IMG/VR virus record: IMGVR_UViG_3300006226_000001
Location: 1 to 56,916 of that record
DNA length: 56,916 nt
Source of the DNA: a virus
Strand: one strand, 5' to 3'
Shown here piece by piece: positions 1 to 56,916 of the stretch. Numbering within the stretch: position 1 is the first letter of the stretch; the number at the start of each line of letters is the position of its first letter. The translations under genes and the position numbers were made by a program. Under the pieces are notes generated by a model. That model was not told where the DNA came from. It did not search any database and was given only the letters and a program-made list of their open reading frames with translations.

Positions 1-127
1 CCAAGTGTAGTTAACATTTCAAATCCGTGTCTAATACAGGATATTTCTAAATCGGTAGCCATCGGTTGAAAACTGATTTTTGTTTTCAGTATCGTTCCAG
101 TTGCTAATGCCTCAACTGTATATGGCA
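1..127. repeat. Direct terminal repeat, copy 1 (identical to 56790..56916). The contig closes into a 56,789-bp circular or terminally redundant genome
   Basis: Base-by-base comparison: 1-127 equals 56790-56916 (127/127). Confidence 0.97.
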
Positions 128-719
128 TTGGTGATACCTTGCTATTTTCAGGGTCTGAGTTTTCTCTGTCCACATGACGCACTAATCCGACCTCTGTTAA
201 TAAATCCTCTGCGGGTATTATTGGAATGGCATAAAATACGGTTTTATCAAAAATCCCAGCTTCTAATGTTTCTTTACATAATGGAAACGCAAATCCAATC
301 TGAACCATACCGGGCATTAATTGACTATACATTGCCGAACCTAATACCGACAGAGCAGGGAACTCTTTTCTCATATCTCTCAATTCTGCTGTGTTTATTT
401 CTTGCTCTGCGGCTTCTATTGTTCCACCAATGCACAGCATAGCATAAACTCTATCCCATGCTCGTTTGCCTTTGGTCTCGCCTAATGCCTCTTTGAATTC
501 CTCGATACTTGTTTTCTGGAATAGTTCCCTCATTATCAATCGTCTCAAAACTCCCCTGATTGCGTTCCCTGAAATTACAGGGACGCGTGGGTAACCTGGC
601 AATGACACAATCGGTTCTCTACGGAATTTTGTATAATTCCCAGCTGACACACCATCCGAAAATGCCCCATGAGCCAGTGGTGCCTTTGTTCTTATTGTTA
701 ATTCATATTCTTTTCTCAT
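1..719 (-). CDS. csf2: Cas7-family RAMP protein (type IV Csf2-like). This is the 5' part of a 288-aa ORF that wraps the junction and ends at 56642
   Basis: Not in the ORF track because there is no stop before the window edge. Manual translation from ATG 719..717 gives MRKEYELTIRTKAPLAHGAFSDGV...YPRVPVISGNAIRGVLRRLIMREL...FPALSVLGSAM... It stays open to base 1 and is in frame with 56642..56851. ATGA overlap with the stop of the 716..1729 gene. Confidence 0.7.
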   Translation of the reverse strand, partial: MRKEYELTIRTKAPLAHGAFSDGVSAGNYTKFRREPIVSLPGYPRVPVISGNAIRGVLRRLIMRELFQKTSIEEFKEALGETKGKRAWDRVYAMLCIGGTIEAAEQEINTAELRDMRKEFPALSVLGSAMYSQLMPGMVQIGFAFPLCKETLEAGIFDKTVFYAIPIIPAEDLLTEVGLVRHVDRENSDPENSKVSPMPYTVEALATGTILKTKISFQPMATDLEISCIRHGFEMLTTL

Positions 720-1729
720 TTTGTCTCTCTCCTTTCTTTTAGAATTTGATAACATAACGCAACAATTAATTTGCTCTTTTCTCTAATTGTTGTTTCAATT
801 TCTTTTTGTTTTTCTAAATCGAAACTGTTTAATACAGGTATGATGTGTTCACCAGCCGAAGTAGCTGGGATATCAAGCATTCCCATTAATTTGTCTGTCA
901 TTTCTGGGAGGTTTAATCTTGAAACCCTATTTATGCGATATAGGAAAAATCCGTCCCAAAATTCTTTACCTCGCTCTCTGCGATATTGTGAGTGCTGTGC
1001 CAGTAGGGACAAATACTCAGCCGCTTCTTTGTCGATATTCTCTATCATCTCTATTACCTCTCTTTTTATAATTTCTTTTTTTTCTTTTGATGGAACTATT
1101 TTTACAAGTAGTTCCACTAAACCTGTGGGTCGATGAGGTTGCAGGATATTGTTTATTTGTTCTAAAAATACCCCACCAACTTTTTCATAAGTAGCCGGGT
1201 GATAATGCCCTGCCTCAATTTCTCGACTTGAAACTCCGTGTGATTTCATAGTTTCAATAGCATTTAATATCTGTGTATGCTCTTTGGGAACAAACTCAAC
1301 CATCTTGTCATCAGTCCCAATTAAAATCCGTTCCCTATTTGATAGCCCCGCGTGTAACCAGTGGTGTTTTTTAAATGAATATGCTATGCTGATAACAAAC
1401 TCTTTTGGTGGGTTTCTTAATTTGTCTAATACTTCCTGCCTTTCTATTACTTCCACATTACCCGGTGATTTGCAAATAATTGTCTTGAATCTCAGCTCTC
1501 GTTTTTCTAATAATTCTTGACAATATTTGCAAATCAAATCACCGGGAAATAACATAAATGCGTTTATTGTAGTGAAACTACTTTTTAACACTTTACTTGT
1601 TTTTTGGGGGTCTATCTGGGGACCACCGCAAGAGCAACATAGGGTGTGAATATCCATAAAAAACTCTGTGGTTTCTTCTCGATGTCCATGTAAAAATTGC
1701 CTTGCCATCCCTTTTAGGTGTGAACTCAT
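716..1729 (-). CDS. csf1: Csf1-like zinc-finger large subunit (type IV Cas8-like) with a long helical C-terminal extension, possibly a fused Cas11
   Basis: ORF track 716..1744. The preferred ATG at 1729 forms an ATGA overlap with the ligase stop (1726..1728). Cys pairs CCSCGG...ICKYCQ near the N-terminus. Sits directly upstream of the Cas7/Cas5-like genes, and its stop overlaps the next start (ATGA at 716..719). Confidence 0.55.
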   Translation of the reverse strand: MSSHLKGMARQFLHGHREETTEFFMDIHTLCCSCGGPQIDPQKTSKVLKSSFTTINAFMLFPGDLICKYCQELLEKRELRFKTIICKSPGNVEVIERQEVLDKLRNPPKEFVISIAYSFKKHHWLHAGLSNRERILIGTDDKMVEFVPKEHTQILNAIETMKSHGVSSREIEAGHYHPATYEKVGGVFLEQINNILQPHRPTGLVELLVKIVPSKEKKEIIKREVIEMIENIDKEAAEYLSLLAQHSQYRRERGKEFWDGFFLYRINRVSRLNLPEMTDKLMGMLDIPATSAGEHIIPVLNSFDLEKQKEIETTIREKSKLIVALCYQILKERRETK

Positions 1730-2493
1730 AAATCCCCCACCCATCTTGTTCCCAGAAACACTGGGTGCCTTGGTTTTCCATTATTTCCGAGTCCAAGATA
1801 TTTGTATACTGCTACATATCCGTTCCTAAAAAATGCTGTTACATCGTAGAAATCCTCTCTCATCTCTGCTGTGAACCCAGAACTTAGGTTGAACTCAACG
1901 CCTGTGTGAATATCTTTTACTACCAAGTGTTTCATTATATTATTTCGGCATTTAGCACAGATAACCTCCGCCTCACTCTCCAAATATCTTTTCATTTTTA
2001 ATAGCTCTGTCGACCTGCCCTGCGTGTAGAGGCTATCGGGGTATCGTATCATAACTCCCTCGTAGCCTTTGTCCAGAGTGTCCTGTTCGTATCTCAGTAG
2101 GTCTTTTTTTGACACTATTTCAGTCTGTGTGATGGGGAAAAAGTCTGCTGTAATAGCCGAGCATCTGTGGAAATAATACCACTGCTCGAAACCTATATTT
2201 CTGTCCCATCTATCGAAAAATACGAATTTGATATTGTCGATAGGTTTTGTGGGGGATAACACAATTGATGTAGTCTTTGAAAAATCCCCGCCATCATAAA
2301 ATAATTCGCCATCAAAACCGTGATTATTGCCATATTTGGCTTGTATCAATTGGTTCGGTATCGGTTTACCCGACCTGCTATAAACCACTCCGTCTTTGAT
2401 GTATGCTCTAATTCCGTCAATTTTTGGTGATGCATAGACGGGGAATTTTACCCCGTCTATGTCCTTTAAATCTGTCGCTAACATTACTTGCAT
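1726..2493 (-). CDS. ATP-dependent DNA ligase (small phage type)
   Basis: Motif I SPKIDGIR (KxDG), motif III FDGELF, motif IV EGVMIR, motif V LLKMK. Start moved to ATG 2493 (RBS AAGGGAG), downstream of the previous stop at 2504. Confidence 0.9.
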   Translation of the reverse strand: MQVMLATDLKDIDGVKFPVYASPKIDGIRAYIKDGVVYSRSGKPIPNQLIQAKYGNNHGFDGELFYDGGDFSKTTSIVLSPTKPIDNIKFVFFDRWDRNIGFEQWYYFHRCSAITADFFPITQTEIVSKKDLLRYEQDTLDKGYEGVMIRYPDSLYTQGRSTELLKMKRYLESEAEVICAKCRNNIMKHLVVKDIHTGVEFNLSSGFTAEMREDFYDVTAFFRNGYVAVYKYLGLGNNGKPRHPVFLGTRWVGDL

Positions 2494-2811: not shown

Positions 2812-3360
2812 TTAATACAGCTGCCCGTAGATTATTATGTTCCAATTGCCTTTTATTTTGATGCCATCGATTATTTCTTTGGAATGTAGAAATTCCTCAA
2901 CCAGTTTATCTGGGACGATATGCCTCTGCCATCCACGGTGGGTTTCAAACCAAACCCAATATTTTTGTGTGACCGTGTTTTGATATAACCTTGCAACTCC
3001 AACTTCTGCATTTGGATTGCAATCGATTTCTATTGAAAAATTTTTATCCATCGTTTTCCATTTAGGATCCCTTATGATTTCAATCTGTGCGTTAACGCGG
3101 TCGTGTTCCATCTGTAATCTTGATTTTTCTCTACTGGTTGTGTAGCTGATTAGGGGCCAGCTTTCAAGATTATATTTACCATTTTTTGGGGTTCCGTCTT
3201 TATTGATTTTGATTAGTCTATACCAGTTTCCCCCCCAACCTTCATCGCCTGGCGTGTGTTTTACTTTGTGCAATCCGTTGCTGTTTTTGAAATATCCACC
3301 AGAGATAATAACAATATCCCCATTATTGATTTCAATTCCGTTTTTGTCTTTCAGTCTCAT
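2812..3360 (-). CDS. Hypothetical protein (182 aa)
   Basis: ORF track. RBS GAGGGAGG upstream; ATGA overlap with the stop of 3357..3632. Confidence 0.7.
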   Translation of the reverse strand: MRLKDKNGIEINNGDIVIISGGYFKNSNGLHKVKHTPGDEGWGGNWYRLIKINKDGTPKNGKYNLESWPLISYTTSREKSRLQMEHDRVNAQIEIIRDPKWKTMDKNFSIEIDCNPNAEVGVARLYQNTVTQKYWVWFETHRGWQRHIVPDKLVEEFLHSKEIIDGIKIKGNWNIIIYGQLY

Positions 3361-3632
3361 TGCGCCTCCCTCAGTAGTATCAGCTCTTCACAATAGCTGA
3401 TTGCGTCATCCAGTATGTTACAAGTGAAGTAGATTTTTTCCGACTCAAGTGTCCTGACCTTAATTTCGTCTTCATTGCAGTGGATGGCAAGCGGATGCCT
3501 CTTGTCGTTTGCATAAAATGTCAGGGAATTTCTAATCTCTGTGGATATGAACGCAGTGTCCATACCCATTACTTCCAGCCTTTCTATCTGTTTTTTTGAT
3601 AGAAATTTTAGTTCTCTTAGTTTCAGTTTCAT
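3357..3632 (-). CDS. Hypothetical protein
   Basis: ORF track 3357..3677. Start set to the ATG inside the conserved GGAGGACACAATG cassette (3632). Confidence 0.6.
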   Translation of the reverse strand: MKLKLRELKFLSKKQIERLEVMGMDTAFISTEIRNSLTFYANDKRHPLAIHCNEDEIKVRTLESEKIYFTCNILDDAISYCEELILLREAQ

Positions 3633-3646
3633 TGTGTCCTCCAATG

Positions 3647-3666
3647 GGGGCGGTTTAAACCGCCCC
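3647..3666 (-). repeat. Intercistronic GC hairpin GGGGCGG-TTTAAA-CCGCCCC, followed by the RBS/start cassette
   Basis: Perfect 7-bp arms. The upstream gene's stop is in the loop. GGAGGACACAATG lies immediately 3' on the minus strand. Confidence 0.85.
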
Positions 3667-4014
3667 TTGATTTTCATTTTTTTTCATAATATCAAGTATT
3701 TCTATATATTCATTTATTCTGTCTTGATACCATTTTTTTTTTCGTATCATTTCAACTTTGGCAGGCTTTCCTTCTCCATCGATTGCTTTCAAACTCTGAA
3801 CCAATTCCATAGCACGTTCTTCTGTCCACAGCGTTGGGAAATATTTGTTTTCAAGTTCAACTATGTTGGTTTTATCGTCCGCTCCGACTGTGTATGCTCC
3901 GCAGGTTACAATCCAGTGGTATGGTTCTAATATTTGTACGCATGGATAAGCCTCTTTATAATACTCTTTTATCAGCCACAGTGCTCTTTCTTTAAATTCT
4001 TTTATGTCTTCCAT
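3655..4014 (-). CDS. Hypothetical protein (119 aa)
   Basis: ORF track. Cassette GGAGGACGCAATG at the start; stop codon lies in the loop of hairpin 3647..3666. Confidence 0.65.
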   Translation of the reverse strand: MEDIKEFKERALWLIKEYYKEAYPCVQILEPYHWIVTCGAYTVGADDKTNIVELENKYFPTLWTEERAMELVQSLKAIDGEGKPAKVEMIRKKKWYQDRINEYIEILDIMKKNENQGAV

Positions 4015-4025
4015 TGCGTCCTCCT

Positions 4026-4044
4026 GGCGGGCTATAAGCCCGCC
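4026..4044 (-). repeat. Intercistronic GC hairpin GGCGGGC-TATAA-GCCCGCC plus RBS cassette
   Basis: Perfect 7-bp arms; stop codon in the loop; GGAGGACGCAATG follows. Confidence 0.85.
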
Positions 4045-4334
4045 TCGTCCTTTTTGAAGTTTTCCTCGATATACTTGAAAGTATGAATTATTTCCTTTTG
4101 ATAACCTTTATATATACCGTTTAGAAAGTTGATTGCCTTTTTGATTGTCCTTCTGAACTCGTCTATCTGTTCTATTTCGGGATCCTCAAGCAACCTTTGG
4201 ATTGTTCCGATTTCATGATGCAAGTTTTCTAATTTTTCTGTGAGGTTGCCTACCTTAATTGTTTCGGTTTCTAATACCAGCAGGCTTGAGAGTAACTCGT
4301 TTATGCTTAATGTTTCGTGTTGTCTTTTTTCCAT
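4032..4334 (-). CDS. Hypothetical protein (100 aa), C-terminus ...EAGL
   Basis: ORF track. Cassette start; stop TAG lies in the loop of hairpin 4026..4044. Confidence 0.65.
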   Translation of the reverse strand: MEKRQHETLSINELLSSLLVLETETIKVGNLTEKLENLHHEIGTIQRLLEDPEIEQIDEFRRTIKKAINFLNGIYKGYQKEIIHTFKYIEENFKKDEAGL

Positions 4335-4347
4335 TGTGTCCTCCAGG

Positions 4348-4366
4348 GGCGGGCTATAAGCCCGCC
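4348..4366 (-). repeat. Intercistronic GC hairpin GGCGGGC-TATAA-GCCCGCC plus RBS cassette
   Basis: Same sequence as the 4026..4044 hairpin; GGAGGACACAATG follows. Confidence 0.85.
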
Positions 4367-4755
4367 TCTGATTTTATTGTTTTTGACATATCATAGAATA
4401 TTTTTTTTGTTCTTTTGATAGTCTTGCATGGTCTTTTTTTGCCTGTTTTGTATTCTGATTTTTTGGCTAATCTTAGGTATTCGATTCCATCGTAACTCAT
4501 AAATGAGAGCTTGCCTTTACGAATGCACAAAGGACTTGAGCTGTGTCCATACCCACCATACTTATCTGCTATTATTGGCTCTCCCCATCGTGTTTCGGTT
4601 GCTATAAATCCTTTGGGTAATACAAACCATCGTCCACCGTCATCGGTGGCGTATGCGCTTTTCAATCCCCCTCTGGGTAATAAACTATAATAACTGCGTC
4701 CACTTTCGTAATAGTAGACATAGTAAACTTTGATTATGTTGTTTGGTCTTGCCAT
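4354..4755 (-). CDS. Hypothetical protein, C-terminus ...EAGL
   Basis: ORF track 4354..4767. Start set to the cassette ATG 4755 (MARPNNII...); stop lies in hairpin 4348..4366. Confidence 0.65.
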   Translation of the reverse strand: MARPNNIIKVYYVYYYESGRSYYSLLPRGGLKSAYATDDGGRWFVLPKGFIATETRWGEPIIADKYGGYGHSSSPLCIRKGKLSFMSYDGIEYLRLAKKSEYKTGKKRPCKTIKRTKKIFYDMSKTIKSEAGL

Positions 4756-4768
4756 TGTGTCCTCCAAT

Positions 4769-4790
4769 GGGCGGGGTTATAACCCCGCCC
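4769..4790 (-). repeat. Intercistronic GC palindrome GGGCGGGGTTATAACCCCGCCC plus RBS cassette
   Basis: 22-nt perfect palindrome; stop codon at its centre; TTGGAGGACACAATG follows. Confidence 0.85.
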
Positions 4791-5055
4791 ATTCTGTTAC
4801 AAATTGATGATAATTTTCATCAATCCAAATATTGATGGTTGTGTTACCTATATTAATTTCAAGTCTGGTTCCTAGGTCGCTTATCCAGCAATCTGGATTT
4901 AGCTTATAGTGTCTGTATACATTATATCCAGCACCTGCGCTTTTAGTTTCGTCTTTTTCGTAATCTGTAGGGAATATCTTGTCTGCCATTCCCCAAGCCA
5001 TATTTTTATTAAATGCTTTCTTGTGGATACTCTTTACCCAATCTGTTGCTTCCAT
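4777..5055 (-). CDS. Hypothetical protein, C-terminus ...WAGL
   Basis: ORF track 4777..5067. Start set to the cassette ATG 5055; stop lies in hairpin 4769..4790. Confidence 0.65.
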   Translation of the reverse strand: MEATDWVKSIHKKAFNKNMAWGMADKIFPTDYEKDETKSAGAGYNVYRHYKLNPDCWISDLGTRLEINIGNTTINIWIDENYHQFVTEWAGL

Positions 5056-5069
5056 TGTGTCCTCCAATG

Positions 5070-5089
5070 GGCGGGGTTATAACCCCGCC
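5070..5089 (-). repeat. Intercistronic GC palindrome GGCGGGGTTATAACCCCGCC plus RBS cassette
   Basis: Near-identical to 4769..4790; the same flanking cassette follows. Confidence 0.85.
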
Positions 5090-5349
5090 TCTTCTTTATA
5101 TTTTTTAATAGTTTCTTTTATTGAATTACACTTTGTGTAATTATCGTCTCTGTCCATATATCCATATTCTAAATCGCAAGTTCTTAGGTAATTACTGGTA
5201 TAGAATATAAATATATGATGGTCGCCATTACTAAAATGTGCCGCGTCATAATCACTGCTACAGTGTTCAAAGCCATTTGTTTTTAGTTCAACTTCAGCCT
5301 GATTGTAAAGCTGCTGGACTCTATCTGAATATTCGTCTAAGTGTTTCAT
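5077..5349 (-). CDS. Hypothetical protein, C-terminus ...EAGL
   Basis: ORF track 5077..5418. Start set to ATG 5349, preceded by CCAGGAGGACGAA; stop lies in hairpin 5070..5089. Confidence 0.6.
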   Translation of the reverse strand: MKHLDEYSDRVQQLYNQAEVELKTNGFEHCSSDYDAAHFSNGDHHIFIFYTSNYLRTCDLEYGYMDRDDNYTKCNSIKETIKKYKEEAGL

Positions 5350-5363
5350 TTCGTCCTCCTGGG

Positions 5364-5380
5364 GCGGGCTATAAGCCCGC
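5364..5380 (-). repeat. Intercistronic GC hairpin GCGGGC-TATAA-GCCCGC plus RBS
   Basis: 6-bp arms; stop of 5369..5743 in the loop; CCAGGAGGACGAAATG follows. Confidence 0.8.
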
Positions 5381-5743
5381 TCCTTTATTTCTTTTGATTT
5401 CAGGAATCTGTTTTTCAATCAAACTAAATATGGCATCTCTTGACTGTTGTCTAATTTCTTTGTCATTTGCCCAGTTTATTCTCTGTCTGTTTTTAACCTT
5501 TTTGATTGTGTCATTTAGTCCTTTCATATGTGACTGGAATATTTTCATTTTGGCTTTATCCCAGGTCTTGTAGTATTCTATGTTATCCATTATATACTTC
5601 TTTCTTTTTTTCAGGTGGATGAGCATTTCATCGACTTCGTGGTGTAACCAGATGCCACTGAAATTTCTATTTAGATTTTCAAATTCTGCGTCAATTTCTA
5701 TGGCTCTTTCAAATAATTTTTTTTCGTAGTTTAAATCTTTCAT
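5369..5743 (-). CDS. Hypothetical protein (124 aa), C-terminus ...GAGL
   Basis: ORF track. Cassette GGAGGACGCAATG at the start; stop lies in hairpin 5364..5380. Confidence 0.65.
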   Translation of the reverse strand: MKDLNYEKKLFERAIEIDAEFENLNRNFSGIWLHHEVDEMLIHLKKRKKYIMDNIEYYKTWDKAKMKIFQSHMKGLNDTIKKVKNRQRINWANDKEIRQQSRDAIFSLIEKQIPEIKRNKGAGL

Positions 5744-5754
5744 TGCGTCCTCCT

Positions 5755-5773
5755 GGCGGGCTATAAGCCCGCC
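5755..5773 (-). repeat. Intercistronic GC hairpin GGCGGGC-TATAA-GCCCGCC plus RBS cassette
   Basis: Identical to the 4026..4044 hairpin; the stop of the 58-aa ORF is in the loop. Confidence 0.85.
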
Positions 5774-5937
5774 GTTTCCTTTTGGTTAAGTTCCAAGTAG
5801 TGCCAGTAGAGTTTTGAGTTTAAGTAACGCAATCTGTCGGTTGCTTTGTTTAATTTTGAGTAGCCTTTCATTATGACTGCCACTCTGTTTAGTGTGCTAA
5901 ATCCTGCGTATATTAACGCTTTTTTAAATCGTTCCAT
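5761..5937 (-). CDS. Hypothetical small protein (58 aa), below the ORF-track cutoff, C-terminus ...TAGL
   Basis: Manual translation from cassette ATG 5937 gives MERFKKALIYAGFSTLNRVAVIMKGYSKLNKATDRLRYLNSKLYWHYLELNQKETAGL. Stop TAG at 5761..5763 lies in hairpin 5755..5773. Confidence 0.5.
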   Translation of the reverse strand: MERFKKALIYAGFSTLNRVAVIMKGYSKLNKATDRLRYLNSKLYWHYLELNQKETAGL

Positions 5938-6233
5938 TGTGTCCTCCTATGGAATTTTTTATTTTTTCTGTTTTGGTTCTCTCTGCTTTACCCGGCAGGT
6001 CGGGTTTTCTTTGTTGCCTGCTCTTGCAGGCTTTCCTCTGTTTTCACTTCTATGTTTGATTTTTAAGAGCCGCTGTGATTTTCGATTTGCTATATCTATC
6101 AGTATAAGTAGCAAAAAGTGTGCCAAATGTAGTAAATATAGATTTAAATTTACTACTAATCCCCTAAACGCACAATTGGTGCGGGTTTGCGGAGTTTGAA
6201 AAAAATCATAAATTAATATCCGTCATCCTTTAT

Positions 6234-22188: not shown

Positions 22189-22346
22189 TGGATTTGTGTG
22201 TGGTAATGGCTCGGTTTACCCATACATCGATTGAATATTTTCTGAAATTGCCGTTAAATCGGTTGCGAGCATGGACAAATAGCATAAACAGAGTAGCCAA
22301 AATGGAACAAGACCAAATGGAGAGGGCAAATGGCAAAAGACACTAA
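21835..22346 (+). CDS. Tail assembly chaperone, predicted -1 frameshift extension product (gpE+E'/gpGT-like)
   Basis: Manual -1 frame translation after the slippery site gives NEHGIGSIGSIMDLCVVMARFTHTSIEYFLKLPLNRLRAWTNSINRVAKMEQDQMERANGKRH. Confidence 0.6.
22149..22155 (+). promoter_or_regulatory. Candidate -1 programmed ribosomal frameshift heptamer T_TTT_TTA
   Basis: 0-frame codons are GGT TTT TTA. The -1 frame is open from 22155 to the stop at 22344..22346 (63 extra codons), overlapping the tape-measure start. Confidence 0.7.
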
Positions 22347-24570
22347 AAAAGCATTTAGTGTAATGTTTAGTATTGGTGGAAAGCTTGACCAATCGCTGAA
22401 AGTTGCGACTGGTGAGGCTCAAAAGCTAATAGAAAAAACTGCTAAAAAGACTAAAGACCAACAACTTTTAAGTCAACTTGAAAGTCGACAGCGTCAGGCA
22501 ATGAAAGGCTTGGAAGCTGCGTCAAAAAAGATGTCAAAGGCTTGGTCTGATGTAGGTCGCTCTATAATGGTTCCAATACGAAACCTTGCTTTATTAGCGG
22601 CGGCTGGTGGTGCCGCCGCTTATAGCATAGCCAGTAAGACTGCAAAGTGGGGGGATGAAGTATATAAAACCGCTCAAAAGATAGGTATTACAACAGAAGC
22701 GATGTCAAAACTTGCTTATGCTGCTCAGCAGTCAAATGTGTCAACTCAGGAATTATCGACAGGAATGAGAAATTTAAGGCAGAATATCACCAAAGCCATT
22801 GAGGGCAATGCCGATGCTCTGCTTGCGTTTCGTAGAGTAGATGACCATTTTAATTTATACAATAAAGATGGAAGTTTGAAAAAGACAGATGAGATTTTGA
22901 TAGAGGTTTCAGATAGATTTAAAAAGATGGCAGATGCAGGTGTTGACAGCGTATATATGCTTGATTTAGCAACAACTGTATTCGGAAATAGAGCTGGTGC
23001 TGCTCTGATGCCTTTGCTGGTCGAGGGGAGTGAGGGGATAGAGGCAATGCGAAAAGAAGCAGAGGAATTGGGAATTGTTTTTGATGATGTGTCAGGTTTA
23101 CAGGCAAAGGAATTTCAGGATAGTGTAACCAGATTAAAGGCTTCTTTTCAAGGTTTAATGATGGCTGTGGGTAAACCATTATTAGAACCTATAACAAAAA
23201 TACAGATAGCCTTAGGTAATTGGGTGGCAAGTAATAGAGAACTTGTTAGCCAAAAAGTAAATGAGTTTTTAGAAAGGATTAAAGAAAATTTACCCAGAAT
23301 AAAAGATTTTATGTTTGAGGTTCGTGATGCATTAGTAGGTGTAGTCAGAATAGTTAAAGGCTTAATTGACAAGCTTGGTGGTCCAGAAGAGGCATTAAAA
23401 AAAATAACAAAGGCTTGGGTAGCATTTCAAGGACTAAAAATTTTGATTTCATTAGGAACTGCAATAGCCGCTACTGTTAAATTTGCTGGAGCATTAAAAA
23501 AAGTAATAGTAATAACAAAAGCATTATTAAAATTAAAGTGGGTAATAGCGATAGGTAAAGGAATTGCTGCTGTGTTTAGTATAGCTGCTTTAAAAATCAT
23601 AGCAATTGTAGCAGCGATAGCCGCCTTGGTTTATGGAATTTGGTGGGTTATAAAGAATTGGGATAAAGTGCGTGCCTTTTTATCTAAAGTAGGTGAGATG
23701 ATAATAGGCGGGTTTATAATTATGTGGGAAAAGATTAAAGGAATATTTACAAAATTTATAGATTATGTAAAAAGTTTATTTGAGGAAGGATTTTTAAAAG
23801 GGATAATTAAAGTATTGGCTCATTTTACTCCTTATTATTGGATTATGAAAGCAATAAATAAAATATTTGGCATTGATTTAATAGCAATGGCAAGAGGGTG
23901 GATGAGTGGTCTTGGTGCAAGTATTATTGGTGGTTTTCAAATAATAGGCAATGGCATTATTTCAATTTTTACTAACTTTATAGATTATGTGAAAGGGTTG
24001 TTTGATGATGGTCTTATAAAAGGCATTATAAGGATATTGGCTCATTTTACCCCTCAGTATTGGATAATGAAAGCAATAAATAAGATTTTTGACATAGATT
24101 TAATACAGATGGGTAAGGATTGGATGAGTGGGTTGATAACTGGAATTCTTGAAGTATTAAGAAACGGAGTTTCTGCTATTGGCTCTGCGTTTAGTAATTT
24201 AATTCCCAATCCTATAAAAAACCTATTTAGCAGAAGTGGTGAGGGTGTTCCAGCTTTTGCTCAGGGTGGCATTGTGAACAGACCGACACTGGCGATGGTC
24301 GGTGAGGATGGTGCAGAGGCTATAATTCCATTAAATAAACCTGACCGGGCAAAAGAGATTATAGCACAGATAACACCCAAGCTGGACCAATCAGGTGGTG
24401 GTAAGGGTGGTGGTGCTTCATTTGTTTTCAGTCCAACGATAAATGTCAATGGTGGTGAGGCAAATAGCATTAAGCCAGCAGTTACAGACGCGTTGAATGA
24501 GGCAAAAAGATATTTTGAAAAGTGGATTTCTGATAGAGAGAGAAATCAACTGAGGGCAAGTCTTGTATGA
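22330..24570 (+). CDS. Tail tape measure protein
   Basis: 746 aa, helical and TM-rich. C-terminal GGIVNRPTLAMVGEDGAEAIIPLNK motif. Lies after the chaperone pair. Confidence 0.9.
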   Translation: MAKDTKKAFSVMFSIGGKLDQSLKVATGEAQKLIEKTAKKTKDQQLLSQLESRQRQAMKGLEAASKKMSKAWSDVGRSIMVPIRNLALLAAAGGAAAYSIASKTAKWGDEVYKTAQKIGITTEAMSKLAYAAQQSNVSTQELSTGMRNLRQNITKAIEGNADALLAFRRVDDHFNLYNKDGSLKKTDEILIEVSDRFKKMADAGVDSVYMLDLATTVFGNRAGAALMPLLVEGSEGIEAMRKEAEELGIVFDDVSGLQAKEFQDSVTRLKASFQGLMMAVGKPLLEPITKIQIALGNWVASNRELVSQKVNEFLERIKENLPRIKDFMFEVRDALVGVVRIVKGLIDKLGGPEEALKKITKAWVAFQGLKILISLGTAIAATVKFAGALKKVIVITKALLKLKWVIAIGKGIAAVFSIAALKIIAIVAAIAALVYGIWWVIKNWDKVRAFLSKVGEMIIGGFIIMWEKIKGIFTKFIDYVKSLFEEGFLKGIIKVLAHFTPYYWIMKAINKIFGIDLIAMARGWMSGLGASIIGGFQIIGNGIISIFTNFIDYVKGLFDDGLIKGIIRILAHFTPQYWIMKAINKIFDIDLIQMGKDWMSGLITGILEVLRNGVSAIGSAFSNLIPNPIKNLFSRSGEGVPAFAQGGIVNRPTLAMVGEDGAEAIIPLNKPDRAKEIIAQITPKLDQSGGGKGGGASFVFSPTINVNGGEANSIKPAVTDALNEAKRYFEKWISDRERNQLRASLV
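23707..24150 (+). repeat. In-frame tandem duplication (2 x 222 nt, 74 aa) inside the tape measure gene
   Basis: Unit 1 (23707..23928) encodes GGFIIMWEKIKGIFTKFIDYVKSLFEEGFLKGIIKVLAHFTPYYWIMKAINKIFGIDLI. Unit 2 (23929..24150) encodes GGFQIIGNGIISIFTNFIDYVKGLFDDGLIKGIIRILAHFTPQYWIMKAINKIFDIDLI. Confidence 0.9.
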
Positions 24571-48202: not shown

Positions 48203-48940
48203 TCATGAAGAATTATAAGTCCCTGTATTAAATCCTTTGTTGGTTCCTTGATATCCACGAACCCTCCTTGCAGGTCTTGTCTTTCCACTGATGTTTTTTG
48301 GCAGTACCTCTTTTTTTGGTGGTCTATATCCATACGATCTTGGGATAATATTTCTTTTTTTCAGATAGGTATCAAGCGTGTTTCTGTGAACATCTAAAAA
48401 TGCTGCGATTTCGTTCATTGGGCAATGCAATTTTATCAGGTTTATTATCTGTTCATCTTTTCCGTGTAGCTTGCTATATCTTGTCGTGCTTCCTTTTTTT
48501 CTGCCAAATACAACACCTTCGGCTTTTTTGCGAGCCATAGCTTCTTTTGTTCGTCTCGATATCAAGTCTCTCTCAATTTGAGCCGAAAGACTAAAGGCAA
48601 AGACGATGACAGCAGTATGTATACCTTCGTCAAGTCTGAGATTGTCTTTTATTGTCCAGATTTCAATCCCTCTTTTCAGGCATTCATTTATAACACCCAT
48701 AATCATAAACATACTTCGACCAAGGCGAGATATTTCGGAACAAATAATCATATCCCCTTTCTGCATTTTTTTCAGTAGATTTCCAAGCTCTCTATCGCCG
48801 ACTTTTTTCGTTCCAGAGACTACCTCTTCAACGAATTTTGAGACAACTAAGTCATTTTTTTGAGCAAAGTTATTTATCTCAAATCGTTGATTTTCGTTTG
48901 TTTGTTTGTCTGTTGACACTCTTACATATGCGTATACCAT
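48203..48940 (-). CDS. Small serine recombinase (resolvase/invertase family) with a C-terminal HTH
   Basis: MVYAYVRVSTDKQTNENQ catalytic-Ser motif, SEISRLGRS, HTH MNEIAAFLDVHRNTLDTYLKK. Confidence 0.9.
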   Translation of the reverse strand: MVYAYVRVSTDKQTNENQRFEINNFAQKNDLVVSKFVEEVVSGTKKVGDRELGNLLKKMQKGDMIICSEISRLGRSMFMIMGVINECLKRGIEIWTIKDNLRLDEGIHTAVIVFAFSLSAQIERDLISRRTKEAMARKKAEGVVFGRKKGSTTRYSKLHGKDEQIINLIKLHCPMNEIAAFLDVHRNTLDTYLKKRNIIPRSYGYRPPKKEVLPKNISGKTRPARRVRGYQGTNKGFNTGTYNSS

Positions 48941-49818: not shown

Positions 49819-50024
49819 TCCAGCTCCTCAGTGATGAACAAATATACTCTTTGCGTTATAATGCTAAATAATTTTTGACAATATTTACATCGCATTTTAG
49901 TATACCAATAGAAAAGACATAAATCTGATTTTGTGCAATTTTTAAGTCTATTCATCCTATCACAATACGGGCATACTGGGTTGTTTGTTTTCTCGTATCG
50001 TGTAAAATTTTCAGGTATTTTCAT
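49815..50024 (-). CDS. Zinc-ribbon small protein
   Basis: ORF track 49815..50207. Start set to ATG 50024 (ATGA overlap with the Gp37/Gp68 stop). CPYCDR...CKYCQ. Confidence 0.55.
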   Translation of the reverse strand: MKIPENFTRYEKTNNPVCPYCDRMNRLKNCTKSDLCLFYWYTKMRCKYCQKLFSIITQRVYLFITEELE

Positions 50025-50767
50025 TTTAACTCCTTTCCAAACGGGTATTGCTGTATTAGCTCGTCCCCCCATATTTCTTTTAGGTTGTTTTTCATAAAAA
50101 TAGGGACATCGTCTTCTTTGCAGTATGCTATCATTGCATCGACCCATTCTTTTTTGGGGATTACTTTGTTTTTTCTGTTTCCTGTTTCTGCCCCGATTAT
50201 TATCCATTTATAATTGGTTGGAAATGTGCCTGACCAAAACCGCTCCAGAATAGGTTCGGCACTAACATAATAGTTGTAATCGCCTTTTGTGTAATAGTCA
50301 GCAGATGATTTGGTGATTGTCATTCCATACCAAAAATTGTCTTTTTGGGGTAGCAGACATTTCATTATTAGCTCACCATACCTTAGGGGGTTCTTGGTCA
50401 GAAAGAAATACCTGTGCTGCGGTGCTTTCTCGCAGGCTTGGAAGACGTCTCGTATCAAGAGGTCTGGCATCCAATCCCCGAATAAATCAGCCATCGAGCA
50501 GACAAATATGTTTTGTGGTTTCTTTATTTTCTGGGGTTCGTTTAATCTGCATTCATAAAAAGTTGGCTCAAAACCGTAAGGAAATGTTTGTTTCTGATGA
50601 GGTGCATCAATCCAACCGTGGATTATTCCATCATTATAGTCCGTTGACATACACCTAAACCTATTTGCTATTTTCCGTGCATAGCAGTATTCGCAGGTGT
50701 TTAGGCATCCCGTGACGGGGTTCCAGGTATAGCCACCATTTAGCCACTCTATTTTAGTCTTGTTCAT
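50021..50767 (-). CDS. Phage Gp37/Gp68-family protein (DUF5131)
   Basis: N-terminus MNKTKIEWLNGGYTWNPVTGCLNTCEYCYARK. Confidence 0.8.
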   Translation of the reverse strand: MNKTKIEWLNGGYTWNPVTGCLNTCEYCYARKIANRFRCMSTDYNDGIIHGWIDAPHQKQTFPYGFEPTFYECRLNEPQKIKKPQNIFVCSMADLFGDWMPDLLIRDVFQACEKAPQHRYFFLTKNPLRYGELIMKCLLPQKDNFWYGMTITKSSADYYTKGDYNYYVSAEPILERFWSGTFPTNYKWIIIGAETGNRKNKVIPKKEWVDAMIAYCKEDDVPIFMKNNLKEIWGDELIQQYPFGKELK

Positions 50768-51414: not shown

Positions 51415-51679
51415 CGGTCTCCTTTTCTAATGGGGTCGAATTCGACCCGATTAAAATTTCTTTTATGGTGTCAAAAAGAACTTTTTCGCCTTTGACAACA
51501 CAGCTTTTTAAACCTAAATACTGCTTTATCTCGAAATGAATAATTGATGGTTCTAATATATTTTGCATGACTTCTACGAATATGTCAGCAGCATAATTTA
51601 CCCATCCATTAACGGGTCTTCTTGCTTTCTCAAATCCCAATTTATTCATTTCAATCTCAAACTTTTCCTCTCTGGTCAT
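51398..51679 (-). CDS. Hypothetical protein (93 aa)
   Basis: ORF track; AAGGAGGCAGAATGA junction at the start. Confidence 0.6.
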   Translation of the reverse strand: MTREEKFEIEMNKLGFEKARRPVNGWVNYAADIFVEVMQNILEPSIIHFEIKQYLGLKSCVVKGEKVLFDTIKEILIGSNSTPLEKETDDAQD

Positions 51680-52098
51680 TCTGCCTCCTTTAATTGTGGC
51701 GCATTCGCCGTAATTAACAGCTCTGGGTGCTGATAGATGTTGCCGATGATACTACCTTCGTAGATAACATCTAAATCTGCAACTAATCCGCCTAAATATG
51801 TATCATTTTCTTGGAAAGTTGATATCATAAAAGCTGCTTCTTTCCAGCATACTTGGGTTATATGTTCAATTGTTTCAATGTCTGTTACTTCTAATACTTC
51901 CAAAATATCCCCCTCGTAAATCAGCTGTTCGTTTTTGTCTTTTAAGCCTGTGCATTGCATAGGGATATATTTTTCTGTATCGAAATGGTCGCCATCAATA
52001 TTTGGGTATTGAACCATAAAATTTTGTGGCATAGTTACGTTTTCGTGCATATATTTTTTATCTTTGTTCCAAATTCGTATTCTAAACCTATCGTTCAT
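51676..52098 (-). CDS. YopX-family protein
   Basis: MQCTGLKDKNEQLIYEGDIL...IIGNIYQHPELL. Confidence 0.8.
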   Translation of the reverse strand: MNDRFRIRIWNKDKKYMHENVTMPQNFMVQYPNIDGDHFDTEKYIPMQCTGLKDKNEQLIYEGDILEVLEVTDIETIEHITQVCWKEAAFMISTFQENDTYLGGLVADLDVIYEGSIIGNIYQHPELLITANAPQLKEAE

Positions 52099-52109
52099 TC
52101 TGCCTCCTT

Positions 52110-52517
52110 TTATTGTGGCACATTCTCCATAATTAAATCTGGGTTTTCGTAGATGTTGCCGATGATTTCTAAATATTGTATAACATCACTATTTAGAATT
52201 ATATCTCCTACCCATGGATTCCAAATGAAACAAGCGGCTTCATCAGTTCCACCCCATATTACATTAGCACGATGTGTTTTGCTGAATATAGCTCCTTCTT
52301 CGTTTTGCAGGATATCCCCCTCGTAAATCAGCTTGCCGTTTTTGTCTTTTAGCCCGGTGCATTGCATTATGGTAGGTTGTTCATACTTCCAATCATCATC
52401 TAACCACCATGAAAAACTTGCTTTGTCGTCTAACAAATCATAATAATGTTGGTCAAACTGAATATCATAATACATTTTACCATCAAAAAATGCCCTATAT
52501 CTGTGCCTGTCGTTCAT
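52110..52517 (-). CDS. YopX-family protein (paralogue)
   Basis: MQCTGLKDKNGKLIYEGDIL...IIGNIYENPDL. Confidence 0.8.
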   Translation of the reverse strand: MNDRHRYRAFFDGKMYYDIQFDQHYYDLLDDKASFSWWLDDDWKYEQPTIMQCTGLKDKNGKLIYEGDILQNEEGAIFSKTHRANVIWGGTDEAACFIWNPWVGDIILNSDVIQYLEIIGNIYENPDLIMENVPQ

Positions 52518-52535
52518 TCTGCCTCCTTTGGCTTT

Positions 52536-52718
52536 TCAATCTTCATTGCTATAGTATTTGCAAGAATAGTATTCTTTTTCTTCTTCGATATGCTTTCTTT
52601 TTGGGTGTCTGCAATAGTGAAAACTCGTAAGACCACCACCAATCCCACTGCCCCATGCACTTCCAGAATATCTGCAACTTTCACATAATGAAACATCTCT
52701 TGAGCTATCTGTATTCAT
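52536..52718 (-). CDS. Cys-rich small protein (60 aa)
   Basis: Begins at the conserved AAGGAGGCAGAATGA junction. CESC...YCRH...SCKY. Preferred over the overlapping 52514..52696 frame. Confidence 0.5.
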   Translation of the reverse strand: MNTDSSRDVSLCESCRYSGSAWGSGIGGGLTSFHYCRHPKRKHIEEEKEYYSCKYYSNED

Positions 52719-53371
52719 TCTGCCTCCTTTGGTTTCTCTGTCCGTTTAAAAGTGATGACTGCAACAAATGGGTTTGTGTCCCAGCCGTAGCCTTTCTTGT
52801 TGTTTAGGGTGTCCCAGATGTTTGCAAATTCTGTTAATGCCTTACAGGTGTTTTCAGGTTTATTTTCCCATTTAAAAAACAAGGATCCCTCTCTTATTAT
52901 GTCGCAGACCTCTATCTCTTGCAATTTCTCTACCCGCACATCCGTCACTTCGAGAAATATGCGAGCTGCTTTTTTTGGCATGTAGCGGGGGGATTTCCAT
53001 TTATAATTACGATATTCGGGTAAATAATCTGCCTTGAAATCATACTTGACATCAATACATTGGTGCGTCTTGTAATCATAAGGATAATAGGGGAAAAAAG
53101 CCTCTTTCACATACAGGATGTCGCCGACTTTGTATTTTGGAACAACGGGAAAATTTACCCATTCTATGTCTGGAACTCCATAGTGGTAAAAGTCCATTAC
53201 CTCCTTGCCTCCATACACTGTTCCGTCCTTTGGGTCTTGATGATTAAACACTACATCATCTGGTATTTCTACATCTCCGTCTGGCTGTGGCTTTATCACC
53301 CTCCTCGTCTGCGTCTTCCTGCCATCGAGAATAGCCTTGACCATCTCTGTGCTAAATTGGATTGGTTTCAT
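52715..53371 (-). CDS. ASCH-like domain protein
   Basis: Start set to ATG 53371 (RBS AGGAGGCACG). MKPIQFSTEMVKAILDGRKTQTRRVIKPQP. Confidence 0.6.
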   Translation of the reverse strand: MKPIQFSTEMVKAILDGRKTQTRRVIKPQPDGDVEIPDDVVFNHQDPKDGTVYGGKEVMDFYHYGVPDIEWVNFPVVPKYKVGDILYVKEAFFPYYPYDYKTHQCIDVKYDFKADYLPEYRNYKWKSPRYMPKKAARIFLEVTDVRVEKLQEIEVCDIIREGSLFFKWENKPENTCKALTEFANIWDTLNNKKGYGWDTNPFVAVITFKRTEKPKEAE

Positions 53372-53379
53372 CGTGCCTC

Positions 53380-53568
53380 CTATGGTGCGATACCAGAGTC
53401 CCAATCATCATCGTATTTTTCATACTCTGAAACCCAATCATCATAATTTTCCCCTGTCAATAATCTGACTACTTGGTCGATAACCCATTGTTTATGGTGG
53501 TCTCCGTCTATTCCCCAATAGTCTAAAATGACTTCAAGAGCTTTGTCTATTTTTTCTTTGTCGTTCAT
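53380..53568 (-). CDS. Hypothetical small protein (62 aa)
   Basis: ORF track; conserved junction at the start. Confidence 0.6.
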   Translation of the reverse strand: MNDKEKIDKALEVILDYWGIDGDHHKQWVIDQVVRLLTGENYDDWVSEYEKYDDDWDSGIAP

Positions 53569-53858
53569 TCTGCCTCCTTTGACAATTCAAGACATTCGTC
53601 ACATTTGATGTTTTTTGAGACCTCATTCACAGTCAATCTCTTTGAAAAAATTTCACAGAAATTATATCTATAATGGTTGCAAGACACCCAATTAGATTGG
53701 TCTATATCTATTGAACAATAACAACCAATCGGTATTTTGATTTTCGGTGCAATTGTTGTCGTCACTAAATCTCGTTTTACTTGTAATGCTTCATCAAGTT
53801 GCTCTTTTAGAGATTTAATAAGCTCGTCCACTTTGTCTATTTTTTCTTGGTTACTCAT
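53565..53858 (-). CDS. Hypothetical protein (97 aa), Cys-containing
   Basis: ORF track; conserved junction at both ends. Confidence 0.6.
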   Translation of the reverse strand: MSNQEKIDKVDELIKSLKEQLDEALQVKRDLVTTTIAPKIKIPIGCYCSIDIDQSNWVSCNHYRYNFCEIFSKRLTVNEVSKNIKCDECLELSKEAE

Positions 53859-54127
53859 TCTGCCTCCAAATCAAAAGGCTCGTGTCCTGCTGAATACCTG
53901 ATAAATCTACCATTTCCATCATGAACCAGTTCGTCAATTTGACCATCTGTGTCTTGATAGAATATTCTTTGATGTAAATATCCCATCAGCCAATGGTCTG
54001 CTGTTATCTTTGCTACTACCCGTTCTGCATCGTTGGTCACTGTCATATTGTTTTCGTGACCGTCATCTATAATGTAAACATAGTCTTTGGTGATTTGTTT
54101 CTCAAAATAACTTGCTTTTTGTGCCAT
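53855..54127 (-). CDS. Hypothetical protein (90 aa)
   Basis: ORF track; RBS AGGAGACAGA. Confidence 0.6.
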   Translation of the reverse strand: MAQKASYFEKQITKDYVYIIDDGHENNMTVTNDAERVVAKITADHWLMGYLHQRIFYQDTDGQIDELVHDGNGRFIRYSAGHEPFDLEAE

Positions 54128-54986: not shown

Positions 54987-55195
54987 CTTGCCCTCTCTTT
55001 TAATTTTAGTCTAACAAATTCTTTTTCAAACATATTCAGTAGGTATGCAACCTCGTGCAACGATAACTCGTCAACCAAGTGGTCCCATGCCTTCCATAAT
55101 GTCCAAACCTCGTTAGAAATCGAAATATATTTTTTCTTTCCGTTTTCAATCTGCTCTGCGAGACTGATAAATGTGTTGAAATCTTTCCAGCTCAT
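54983..55195 (-). CDS. Hypothetical protein (70 aa)
   Basis: ORF track; ATGA overlap with the cysH-like stop. Confidence 0.55.
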   Translation of the reverse strand: MSWKDFNTFISLAEQIENGKKKYISISNEVWTLWKAWDHLVDELSLHEVAYLLNMFEKEFVRLKLKERAR

Positions 55196-55965
55196 TTGTC
55201 CTCCGTTTCAAGCCTTCTTTCACCTTGCTTGAACTTTTCATAATATTCTGGGTGGTAATATTTTAACCATTCACCATAACCATATTTGTCAGTAAAGTCC
55301 ATTCCGTTCCAAGTTCCGTCTCTTAAATGTTCAAGATTTGTTACTCCTAAATTTTGATAATAAACTGGGTGTATCGGAATATTAAATAACAGCAACAGGC
55401 ACAGAGTTTCCTCAGCAGTCCACCGCAGCACAGGACAACAACGCCAACTTCCATCTGCAATTTGGTATACACTGCCTTTTTTATATCCTGTAATTCTTCT
55501 GACCATACTTTCTTTCATACGGATACCCATTATAACACCATCAACATTGTCTTTTTTCATTGCCTCGTCAATCAACCTCATTTTCAATCCTGCGGGGTAT
55601 TCTAATCTACCCAGCAGGAAAGCCTCTATGTCCCACCAGTATTTCACATCGTTCCATTTATTTGGAAATACTTTTTTTAACTTTTCAATGTGTTCATCTC
55701 TACCTGGTAATGGGTCAACATAGTTTGCACAATAAATAGGGATACTTGGGTCGACTTGATTTACCAATACAACAGATGCAGTGCTGTCTTTTCCGCCTCC
55801 GCAACTAATAGCAGGTTTTTTTGATAACACTAAAAACATCTCAATGTCTCTTAGGGACTCATCGATTTTGTTTTGGAACATCTGTGTTTTTCCTAATGCT
55901 ATTAGGTCATTAATTCTTTTTTCAGATAACACTTTTTGTTTGTTTTTTAGTTCGTCAAATCTCAT
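55192..55965 (-). CDS. PAPS-reductase-family (CysH-like) PP-loop protein
   Basis: PP-loop SCGGGKDSTASVVLV. 257 aa. ATGA overlap with the upstream Cas5-like gene. Confidence 0.8.
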   Translation of the reverse strand: MRFDELKNKQKVLSEKRINDLIALGKTQMFQNKIDESLRDIEMFLVLSKKPAISCGGGKDSTASVVLVNQVDPSIPIYCANYVDPLPGRDEHIEKLKKVFPNKWNDVKYWWDIEAFLLGRLEYPAGLKMRLIDEAMKKDNVDGVIMGIRMKESMVRRITGYKKGSVYQIADGSWRCCPVLRWTAEETLCLLLLFNIPIHPVYYQNLGVTNLEHLRDGTWNGMDFTDKYGYGEWLKYYHPEYYEKFKQGERRLETEDK

Positions 55966-56642
55966 CGAAAACCTATCCCTACAGTCAAATTAATCTCATC
56001 GCCGACCTCAAATCCGTATTGCCTGCCTGCCGACATCCAATATGGTGGGTGCATTTGAAGTTTATTGTTTGATTTATTAAAGCAAAACGCATCTGGTATT
56101 CTTCTGCGAGCTTTTCCATTGTCTATTAATACACTTCTGAATTCTGCTTCGATTTTATCTATTGTCCAATCTACAACTGCTCCATTGCCATTTTTCCGCC
56201 ATCCACCAATTTGTTTAACTCTACTTAATAACCTCATTAACTCTTTCTCATCTTTTATAACCGCATAAAAATATGCCTCTGGTGTTAAAACGGTGGTTCC
56301 AGTCATCATTCTATCTTTCATTGGACCACTGCCTGGTGAATGTTGCCTTTGCAGATATAGAATATCAATCGGGTCAGTTCTTTTGGTCTGGGTAATTGTT
56401 GAAATAACAGCATCAGATGGGAATTCTAATGCAGTGCAACCCCATACCCATGTAGAGAAACAATAAGCAGATGCAAGTGGCAGGGGTATATTTTTTAAAT
56501 TACCCCTGTCTGTATCTGTCCTTGTAGGCTTATAATCGGTGTGTAATGCAGGGTGACATCCCATTAAAACTGCATCCAAATGCAATGGGGAGTGCATAAC
56601 AATAGCCGATGACATCTTTGCAGTAATTTTTACTACTTCCAT
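55962..56642 (-). CDS. csf3: Cas5-family RAMP protein (type IV Csf3-like)
   Basis: 226 aa. N-terminal VKITAKMSSAIVMHSPLHLDAVLMG, glycine-rich loop QIGGWRKNGNGAV. TAATG overlap with the Cas7-like stop. Confidence 0.55.
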   Translation of the reverse strand: MEVVKITAKMSSAIVMHSPLHLDAVLMGCHPALHTDYKPTRTDTDRGNLKNIPLPLASAYCFSTWVWGCTALEFPSDAVISTITQTKRTDPIDILYLQRQHSPGSGPMKDRMMTGTTVLTPEAYFYAVIKDEKELMRLLSRVKQIGGWRKNGNGAVVDWTIDKIEAEFRSVLIDNGKARRRIPDAFCFNKSNNKLQMHPPYWMSAGRQYGFEVGDEINLTVGIGFR

Positions 56643-56789
56643 TATAATACCCTTTCAGAATATTTTAACAAGAGAGCCTTTATATCGGTTTCTGCTAACC
56701 AATCTTGATATAGATATTTTGAAATATCAAGATTTAAATAGGGGTCAATCTCAAGTTCAATATCACCGAAACCGACCGCAGACTTTCCG
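56642..56789 (-). CDS. csf2: Cas7-family RAMP protein (Csf2-like), 3' end of the junction-spanning ORF whose 5' part is 1..719
   Basis: The ORF-track entry 56642..56851 is only the part following an internal Met. C-terminal LGGKSAVGFGDIELEI glycine-rich loop. Confidence 0.7.
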
Positions 56790-56916
56790 CCAAGTGTAGT
56801 TAACATTTCAAATCCGTGTCTAATACAGGATATTTCTAAATCGGTAGCCATCGGTTGAAAACTGATTTTTGTTTTCAGTATCGTTCCAGTTGCTAATGCC
56901 TCAACTGTATATGGCA
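56790..56916. repeat. Direct terminal repeat, copy 2 (identical to 1..127)
   Basis: 127/127 identity with the window start. Confidence 0.97.

Follow-up and report, generated by a model that had tools for sequence, protein, structure and literature searches.

The locus described here raises the question of where a type IV-B CRISPR system keeps its small subunit, Cas11, when the gene for its large subunit, Csf1, runs directly into the next gene of the module. It lies in the virus record IMGVR_UViG_3300006226_000001, which we analyzed over its full 56,916 nucleotides (nt; the window). The contig ends (1-127 and 56790-56916) are 100% identical over 127 nt. Therefore, the record is a circular assembly with a unit of 56,789 bp, and csf2, the Cas7 gene of the module, wraps around the origin. 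All genes of the module, as well as the adjoining ATP-dependent DNA ligase gene, lie on the minus strand. Taking the evidence jointly, we consider it likely that Cas11 is fused in frame to Csf1 in an array-less type IV-B system of a phage, that the fused gene probably holds an internal start for Cas11, and that the ligase is an ordinary neighbor.

The fused open reading frame (ORF; 1729..716) begins at ATG 1729, stops at 718..716, and encodes 337 amino acids (aa), compared to 206-241 aa for Csf1 profiles and reference proteins, so that ~125 of its residues extend beyond the length of Csf1. ATG 1729 is preceded by GGGGGA and agrees with the database protein P0001; a further in-frame ATG upstream, at 1744, has no Shine-Dalgarno (SD) motif. 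Both ends of the ORF are joined to their neighbors by four shared nucleotides, ATGA: the ligase TGA (1728..1726) overlaps ATG 1729, and the csf2 ATG (719..717) overlaps the stop of the fused ORF, which leaves no space for a separate small gene. Within the ORF, we delimited a Csf1 (Cas8-like large subunit) domain at aa 1-211 (1097..1729), an acidic/basic interdomain linker at aa 212-227 (1049..1096), and a Cas11-like small-subunit domain at aa 228-337 (719..1048), which begins at M228. The original prediction, made from the letters alone, had described an oversized Csf1-like ORF of about 337 aa that overlaps the ligase stop, ends in ~110 all-helical residues, and is followed by the Cas7-like gene without a small gene in between. 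Each of these descriptions holds in the sequence or, for the helical residues, in an AlphaFold prediction with a predicted local distance difference test score (pLDDT) above 90. Its suggestion that Cas11 may be fused to Csf1 is likewise supported by the profile matches, architecture, gene order, and conservation described below.

The N-terminal part of the protein is readily recognized as Csf1. Residues 26-200 match the PADLOC profile Csf1_0_IV at 2.1e-25, and the fused protein also has a weak match to TIGR03114, with no match in our local copy of Pfam. In Foldseek, the whole AlphaFold model matched the type IV-A Csf1 structures 7xg1_A (E=5e-6) and 8rc3_G (E=1e-5). These alignments span 208-230 columns of chains that are 240-241 residues long, indicating that the N-terminal domain is a complete Csf1. 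It carries a zinc motif, CCxCGG...CxxC, whose cysteines are invariant in our alignments. In the full-length model, built with nine homologues (mean pLDDT 87), an N-terminal alpha/beta domain is followed by a linker, where pLDDT is low over residues 217-225, and then by a C-terminal domain that is entirely helical. We also observed a 9-residue insertion in this Csf1 (the FMDIHTL region, aa 24-32, 1633-1659), which lies just before the CCSCGG zinc knuckle and is absent from all eight aligned homologues.

Several lines of evidence suggest that the C-terminal domain is Cas11. When residues 223-337 were modelled alone with AlphaFold2, they formed a helical bundle of seven helical segments (pLDDT 94, predicted template modelling score 0.86), a compact all-alpha fold as expected of a type IV Cas11 small subunit (~110-160 residues). 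Residues 201-337 matched the PADLOC profile Cas11_0_IV weakly (E=0.016) and colinearly over positions 7-112 of its 114, and the homologues P0003 and P0007 gave colinear matches to the same profile. The best match among the isolated domains of relatives to type IV Cas11 profiles reached 1.7e-5, while 6 of 18 short members of the family matched Cas11_0_IV, and one each matched the Cas11 models of the Rhodococcus jostii RHA1 type. Canonical Rhodococcus Cas11 matches the RHA1-type profiles at 1e-55 to 1e-59. A Halomontanus plasmid encodes a Cas11 that truly stands alone, and this protein matches the same models at 3e-4 and 0.04, no more strongly than the fused domain does.

We then have the comparison of deep profiles, one built from 134 fused-domain sequences and the other from 103 canonical Cas11 proteins recruited with the RHA1 protein, which itself matches the Cas11 chain of the cryogenic electron microscopy (cryo-EM) structure (7jhy_h) at 9e-28. 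Aligned by hhalign, the two profiles scored 30.5 over 61 columns (P=1.1e-4), including a shared motif, (F/Y)W..(F/L)..R(I/V).R...L. In 150 column shuffles, the score was 10.8 +/- 2.2 with a maximum of 20, and the reversed target scored 13, placing the real score ~9 standard deviations above the shuffled mean. Gene order points the same way. The original prediction had stated as background that type IV-B loci usually have a separate small Cas11 gene between csf1 and csf2. In canonical loci, such a cas11 encodes 138-144 aa, and the fused domain holds this same position. The predicted Csf1-Cas11 fusion is thus well supported by profile matches at the sequence level, by the architecture of the domains, by gene order, and by its recurrence in ~100 clusters.

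The fusion is not confined to this genome. A word-indexed search returned nine clusters, in which all proteins except one miscalled fragment were 320-339 aa, and an exhaustive search with a C-terminal-domain profile returned 136 clusters (50% identity). The family comprises 141 proteins, of which 99 have a length of 280 aa or more, in most cases 300-360 aa, and carry the domain as their C-terminal part. We found 27 loci in viral, metagenomic, and genomic collections in which csf2 starts <180 nt after the fused ORF and no separate cas11 is present. Related loci occur in phage-like contexts with tail, lysis, terminase, and integrase genes. Five contigs came from genome collections: four belong to metagenome-assembled genomes (MAGs) of Bacillota (Oscillospiraceae, Clostridia, Ruminococcus, and Bacillota), and the fifth, from a binned isolate assembly, carries the label Escherichia coli. 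The fused architecture is conserved in a large clade, mostly on phage-like contigs, with further members on contigs of Bacillota MAGs. As far as the type IV literature could be searched, we found no mention of a Csf1-Cas11 fusion, and accounts of type IV-B list cas11 separately.

About 20 proteins of the family are short (105-134 aa) and resemble standalone Cas11. In all six that we looked up, a contig end is no more than 451 nt away, and in the five contigs with DNA available, the frame is open upstream to the contig end and encodes Csf1 sequence. These truncated fused ORFs, called as Cas11-like, lie at the contig ends of L013 (571-894), L014 (53-397), L015 (452-769), L016 (97-435), and L031 (128-529). 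In each, the gene caller began at an internal ATG, GTG, or TTG behind an SD motif, and in L013 it additionally annotated the Csf1 part with a spurious ORF in another frame. We therefore rejected a standalone Cas11 for the proteins looked up, which represent 5'-truncated fused genes rather than split ones. Database entries of this clade that look like short, standalone Cas11 thus appear to be pieces of fused genes.

The start of the Cas11 domain resembles the start of a gene. Its first codon, M228, is an ATG (1048..1046), and an SD-like GAGAGG (1062..1057) lies in the linker 8 nt upstream. The predicted pairing of this motif with the 3' end of 16S rRNA is -9.1 kcal/mol, compared to -8.4 for the csf1 start and -8.7 as the median over 27 real starts in the same cluster, and only 3.3% of ATG/GTG/TTG triplets in a 19-kb segment have an equal or better SD. 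The ORF has 15 start-capable codons in frame, and only codons 1 and 228 have such a site. The boundary codon is also start-capable in all 12 lineages that could be aligned as DNA (nine ATG, two TTG for Leu, and one GTG for Val), and two further loci have ATG at the boundary. A GGAGG-like motif lies 5-12 nt upstream of the boundary codon in all 12 lineages and the two further loci, high-GC lineages included. In protein alignments, the boundary residue is M, V, or L in 82 of 88 aligned long representatives.

A possible origin for this arrangement is seen in the Halomontanus plasmid, where csf1 and cas11 overlap by 4 nt. From such an overlap, the loss of a single stop codon would yield the present fusion with the old start kept in place. 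Most likely, M228 descends from the original cas11 start, which came to lie in frame after the loss of the csf1 stop. Whether free Cas11 is still made from it by internal translation is, from the sequence, a roughly even call. The broader proposition falls just short of even odds: a clade of at least ~100 clusters (50% identity) would have merged csf1 and cas11 while keeping the cas11 start and its SD, such that one gene gives both Csf1-Cas11 and free Cas11.

Not all results favor a Cas11 identity for the C-terminal domain. Foldseek, given the confident model of this domain, returned no Cas11 from the PDB or BFVD and nothing below E=0.9; the cryo-EM structure 7JHY is a 3.9-Å model (PMC7937560). 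The structural check of this region proposed earlier therefore came out in two halves, as a helical bundle was predicted, but no Cas11 fold was returned. Likewise, the domain profile did not reach the 7JHY Cas11 in a HMMER search of the PDB, and the full-length and C-terminal profiles gave only noise there. The window's own Cas11 profile match is weak, at 13 bits, and the deep hhalign alignment has a probability of just 57% and covers about half of the domain. With small profiles, hhalign against single canonical Cas11 sequences was also weak (E 0.25 for Halomontanus, E 0.012 for RHA1), and a clear signal emerged only with deep profiles. Most of these results count against the fusion as we read it, and the Foldseek, HMMER, and single-sequence results would suit another reading, in which the C-terminal helices have no relation to Cas11 and extend Csf1 in this lineage only. 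Such an extension might recruit an accessory enzyme or bind nucleic acid, and the loci would then be without a small subunit, like type IV-A. We consider this improbable given the colinear, full-length type IV Cas11 profile matches in several family members, the score of the deep profiles against their shuffled null, and a position, size, and all-alpha fold that are exactly those of cas11 in canonical type IV-B loci. Far less probable still, to the point of being negligible, is an artefact of assembly or sequencing, in which a lost stop codon or a frameshift merged separate csf1 and cas11 genes; nothing was found in its favor, and we rejected it because the fused architecture recurs in ~100 independent clusters at 50% identity and in 27 loci from different samples.

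A further question is whether the fusion is the sole product of the gene. In that case, there would be no internal initiation and a single tethered Cas11 per complex, the minor filament would be shortened or absent, as proposed for Cas8f of type I-F1, and the Met and the SD-like motif would be either remnants of an ancestral cas11 start or by-products of the linker. Some evidence speaks for this and against an internal start. Synonymous recoding of the linker gives an equally strong SD in 1-77% of trials depending on lineage, which is non-significant in most lineages, and the linker is conserved at the protein level as Glu-rich; the SD-like motif may thus be a by-product of a linker rich in Glu, Gly, and Arg. 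Of the 99 long representatives, just 53 have Met at the boundary, while 23 have Val, 6 Leu, 4 Ala, and 1 Pro. In the 88 that were aligned, Val or Leu occurs 29 times at this position and Ala or Pro 5 times. By contrast, every lineage with DNA has a start-capable boundary codon, even where the residue is Leu (TTG) or Val (GTG), and the SD equals those of real starts of this genome in strength. Gene callers also picked the boundary start in all six truncated contigs, and where DNA is available (five of them), the frame stays open as far as the contig end; moreover, the solved type IV-B complex contains five copies of Cas11 (PMC7937560). On balance, we regard a sole fused product as a serious possibility, although one that we would bet against.

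If the fusion with an internal start is correct, the system might work as follows. A flexible linker of ~16 residues would join the C-terminus of Csf1, in frame, to the small subunit Cas11, and assembly would proceed as in the solved type IV-B ribonucleoprotein 7JHY, with a Csf2 filament on a small RNA. By analogy with that structure and with class 1 architecture, Csf3 would sit at one end of the Csf2 filament and Csf1 at the other, and the tethered Cas11 domain would cap the minor filament at the first Csf2-Csf2 interface. Further, free Cas11 (110 aa, ~13 kDa) would probably arise from internal initiation at ATG 1048 behind GAGAGG and may occupy the remaining Csf2-Csf2 interfaces. The role proposed for type IV-B generally is the sequestering of small RNAs, such as host CRISPR RNAs, or another counter-defense or inter-element function together with the cysH-like enzyme (PMC7038947, PMC7937560).

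The second question raised by the locus is whether the DNA ligase belongs to the module. Its gene (1726..2493) encodes 255 aa from ATG 2493, which is preceded by AAGGGAG, while an alternative GTG at 2532 would give 268 aa. The protein contains the KIDG motif I and matches PF01068, PF14743, NF006592 (8e-35), and phrog_114 (9e-49). The original prediction held that ligase expression is stoichiometrically tied to the module. In support of such a functional partnership, the ATGA overlap with the fused ORF is real, and a scan for promoters and terminators found no such signal between the ligase and csf1, nor any that sets the module apart. However, ATGA overlaps of 4 nt join 17 of the 43 adjacent gene pairs in this minus-strand cluster and are its commonest junction; an unbroken chain of overlaps runs from the ligase through csf1-cas11, csf2, csf3, and the cysH-like gene to two more small ORFs. 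Moreover, when the window's ligase was used as a tblastn query, none of the 27 related fused-gene loci gave a match within the flanks that were fetched. The upstream neighbors of the module in these relatives vary instead, with lysis genes, methylases, VRR-NUC, integrase, terminase, and small unknown ORFs. The earlier note had let its ligase proposal stand or fall with co-occurrence elsewhere, and none was found. As ATGA is the default junction here and no relative carries the ligase, the proposed partnership is refuted, and we judge a coupled ligase very unlikely. The ligase, a member of a standard phage family, is an ordinary phage replication/repair enzyme that neighbors the Csf module but lies outside it. 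This removes a false lead, in that the type IV-B module here does not have a DNA ligase as an accessory.

The remaining genes of the module follow the fused ORF in the order csf1-cas11, csf2, csf3, and cysH-like. The 5' part of csf2 (Cas7) lies at 1..719 and matches PADLOC Csf2_0_IV at 1.5e-35. Its 3' part (56642..56789, in the ORF 56642..56851) was reconstructed over the circular junction, giving a protein of 288 aa in total across the origin. The original prediction had covered only the 5' part of csf2 and had missed the circularity, csf3, and the cysH-like gene. The csf3 (Cas5) gene (55962..56642) encodes 226 aa and matches PADLOC Csf3_0_IV at 1.1e-25. It is joined by ATGA to a cysH-like gene of the phosphoadenosine phosphosulfate (PAPS) reductase family (55192..55965, 257 aa), a type IV-B accessory gene whose product matches PF01507 with 35.2 bits against a cut-off of 22.5 and phrog_424 at 9e-12. 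Downstream of the cysH-like gene lie small ORFs of 60-135 aa.

This locus fits the definition of subtype IV-B (PMC7038947, PMC8175902), with the sole exception that cas11 is not separate. We found no CRISPR array, mini-array, or array-like repeats in the whole 56.8-kb genome, and no Rfam families across it. At the locus itself, we found no cas6, DinG/RecD, or adaptation genes, in an analysis that compared a part of the ORFs with Cas profiles. In many relatives, the fourth gene is also cysH-like. Elsewhere, the position after csf3 is held by a radical-SAM protein of 418-423 aa, as in L004 (4709-5980) and L005 (4852-6108), or by an unannotated 224-aa protein, as in L001 and L002 (L001 10532-11206). 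The accessory enzyme of this type IV-B clade therefore appears to be interchangeable.

Compared to the canonical type IV-B systems of Rhodococcus jostii RHA1 (pRHL3) and Mycobacterium sp. JS623 (cryo-EM 7JHY), the phage module shares csf1, cas11, csf2, and csf3 with an adjacent cysH-like gene. It also shares the lack of a CRISPR array, cas6, helicase, and adaptation genes, as well as location on a mobile element (PMC7937560, PMC7038947). It differs in that cas11 is the 110-aa C-terminal domain of Csf1, whereas standalone Cas11 is 138-162 aa, and in that it is carried by a tailed phage, where the canonical systems lie on actinobacterial plasmids. The proteins of the two have low sequence similarity, about 26-30% for Csf2. 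Type IV-B modules have also been described in other viruses, namely the Fuxiviridae of Bathyarchaeia (PMC10848311) and a Methanoperedens virus (bioRxiv 10.1101/2023.08.02.551345), which resemble this one in their cysH-like gene, viral carrier, and proposed counter-defense role. However, cas11 is listed as a separate gene in the Methanoperedens virus, and in the Fuxivirus, Cas11 is treated as its own protein and a mini-array is present, whereas here Cas11 is fused and there is no array.

The closest mechanistic parallel comes from types I-B, I-C, and I-D, in which Cas11 is produced by internal in-frame translation of the Cas8b, Cas8c, and Cas10d genes (bioRxiv 10.1101/2020.04.18.045682; PMC11899642). 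As in those systems, the large-subunit ORF ends in a Cas11-like domain, no separate cas11 gene is present, and the boundary start codon is conserved behind a purine motif resembling a ribosome-binding site (RBS) ~8 nt upstream. Unlike them, the present system is type IV with Csf1, and its internal translation is only predicted, with an RBS signal that is inseparable from linker composition. The paper on internal translation in type I does not mention type IV. In-frame fusion of neighboring type IV effector subunits does have a precedent in the Csf3-Csf1 fusion of type IV-E (Pinilla-Redondo et al. 2020, PMC7038947), where the partners are Cas5 and Csf1 rather than Csf1 and Cas11, and where DinG and arrays are present. 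The Csf1-Cas11 fusion would be a new architecture within a known type IV-B system, and the nested-gene mechanism is plausible but unproven.

These findings bear on both the structure and the annotation of type IV-B systems. Csf1 has never been resolved in a type IV-B structure (PMC7937560), and a natural Csf1-Cas11 fusion fixes its place relative to the Cas11 minor filament. The compact four-gene phage module is well suited to reconstitution. If internal initiation does occur, the encoding of two subunits by one gene would become a general feature of class 1, and the nesting of small-subunit genes would no longer be confined to type I but include type IV. If the clade is merged as proposed, public gene calls and CRISPR typing tools would mis-score its loci as lacking cas11 or would mis-split it.

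The carrier is a complete tailed phage of 56.8 kb, with genes for terminase, portal, major head, tail sheath, tape measure, tail fiber, and primase-helicase elsewhere in its genome. It had no BLAST match to sequenced phages at either the DNA or protein level, and no tRNAs were found in the whole genome. The early minus-strand cluster that holds the Csf module also contains a serine recombinase/DNA invertase (48203-48940; phrog_125, 5e-46) and a DUF5131 protein (50021-50767; PF07505, 1e-38). Among the structural genes, the tape-measure gene (22330-24570) has an internal tandem duplication of ~220 nt (23692-24131), the copies of which are 73% identical.

Two recurrent junction cassettes were also observed. 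In 3627-5950, at least six small minus-strand genes are separated by a GC-rich palindromic hairpin (GGGCGGGCTATAAGCCCGCC-like) followed by GGAGGACACAATG on the minus strand, with examples at 3646-3667, 4026-4044, 4344-4370, 5069-5090, 5361-5383, and 5754-5774. The ORFs upstream of these hairpins run into them, and all of their C-termini read ...AGL. The hairpins score as intrinsic terminators on the plus strand, with 13 found compared to 4.9 expected. A second conserved junction cassette, AAAGGAGGCAGAATGA, occurs in 51676-53870 (for example, at 51679, 52098, 52517, 53568, and 53858). At these junctions, the SD of the next gene lies within the last codons of the previous one, so that the ORFs end in ...EAE, and the stop overlaps the following ATG. 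Two adjacent small genes of this region (51676-52517), encoding 140 and 135 aa, are paralogous and have a common block, ...MQCTGLKDKN..LIYEGDIL.... Their shared DNA motif appears again at 3314-3354, at the start of a 182-aa ORF (2812-3360) that lies two genes upstream of the ligase.

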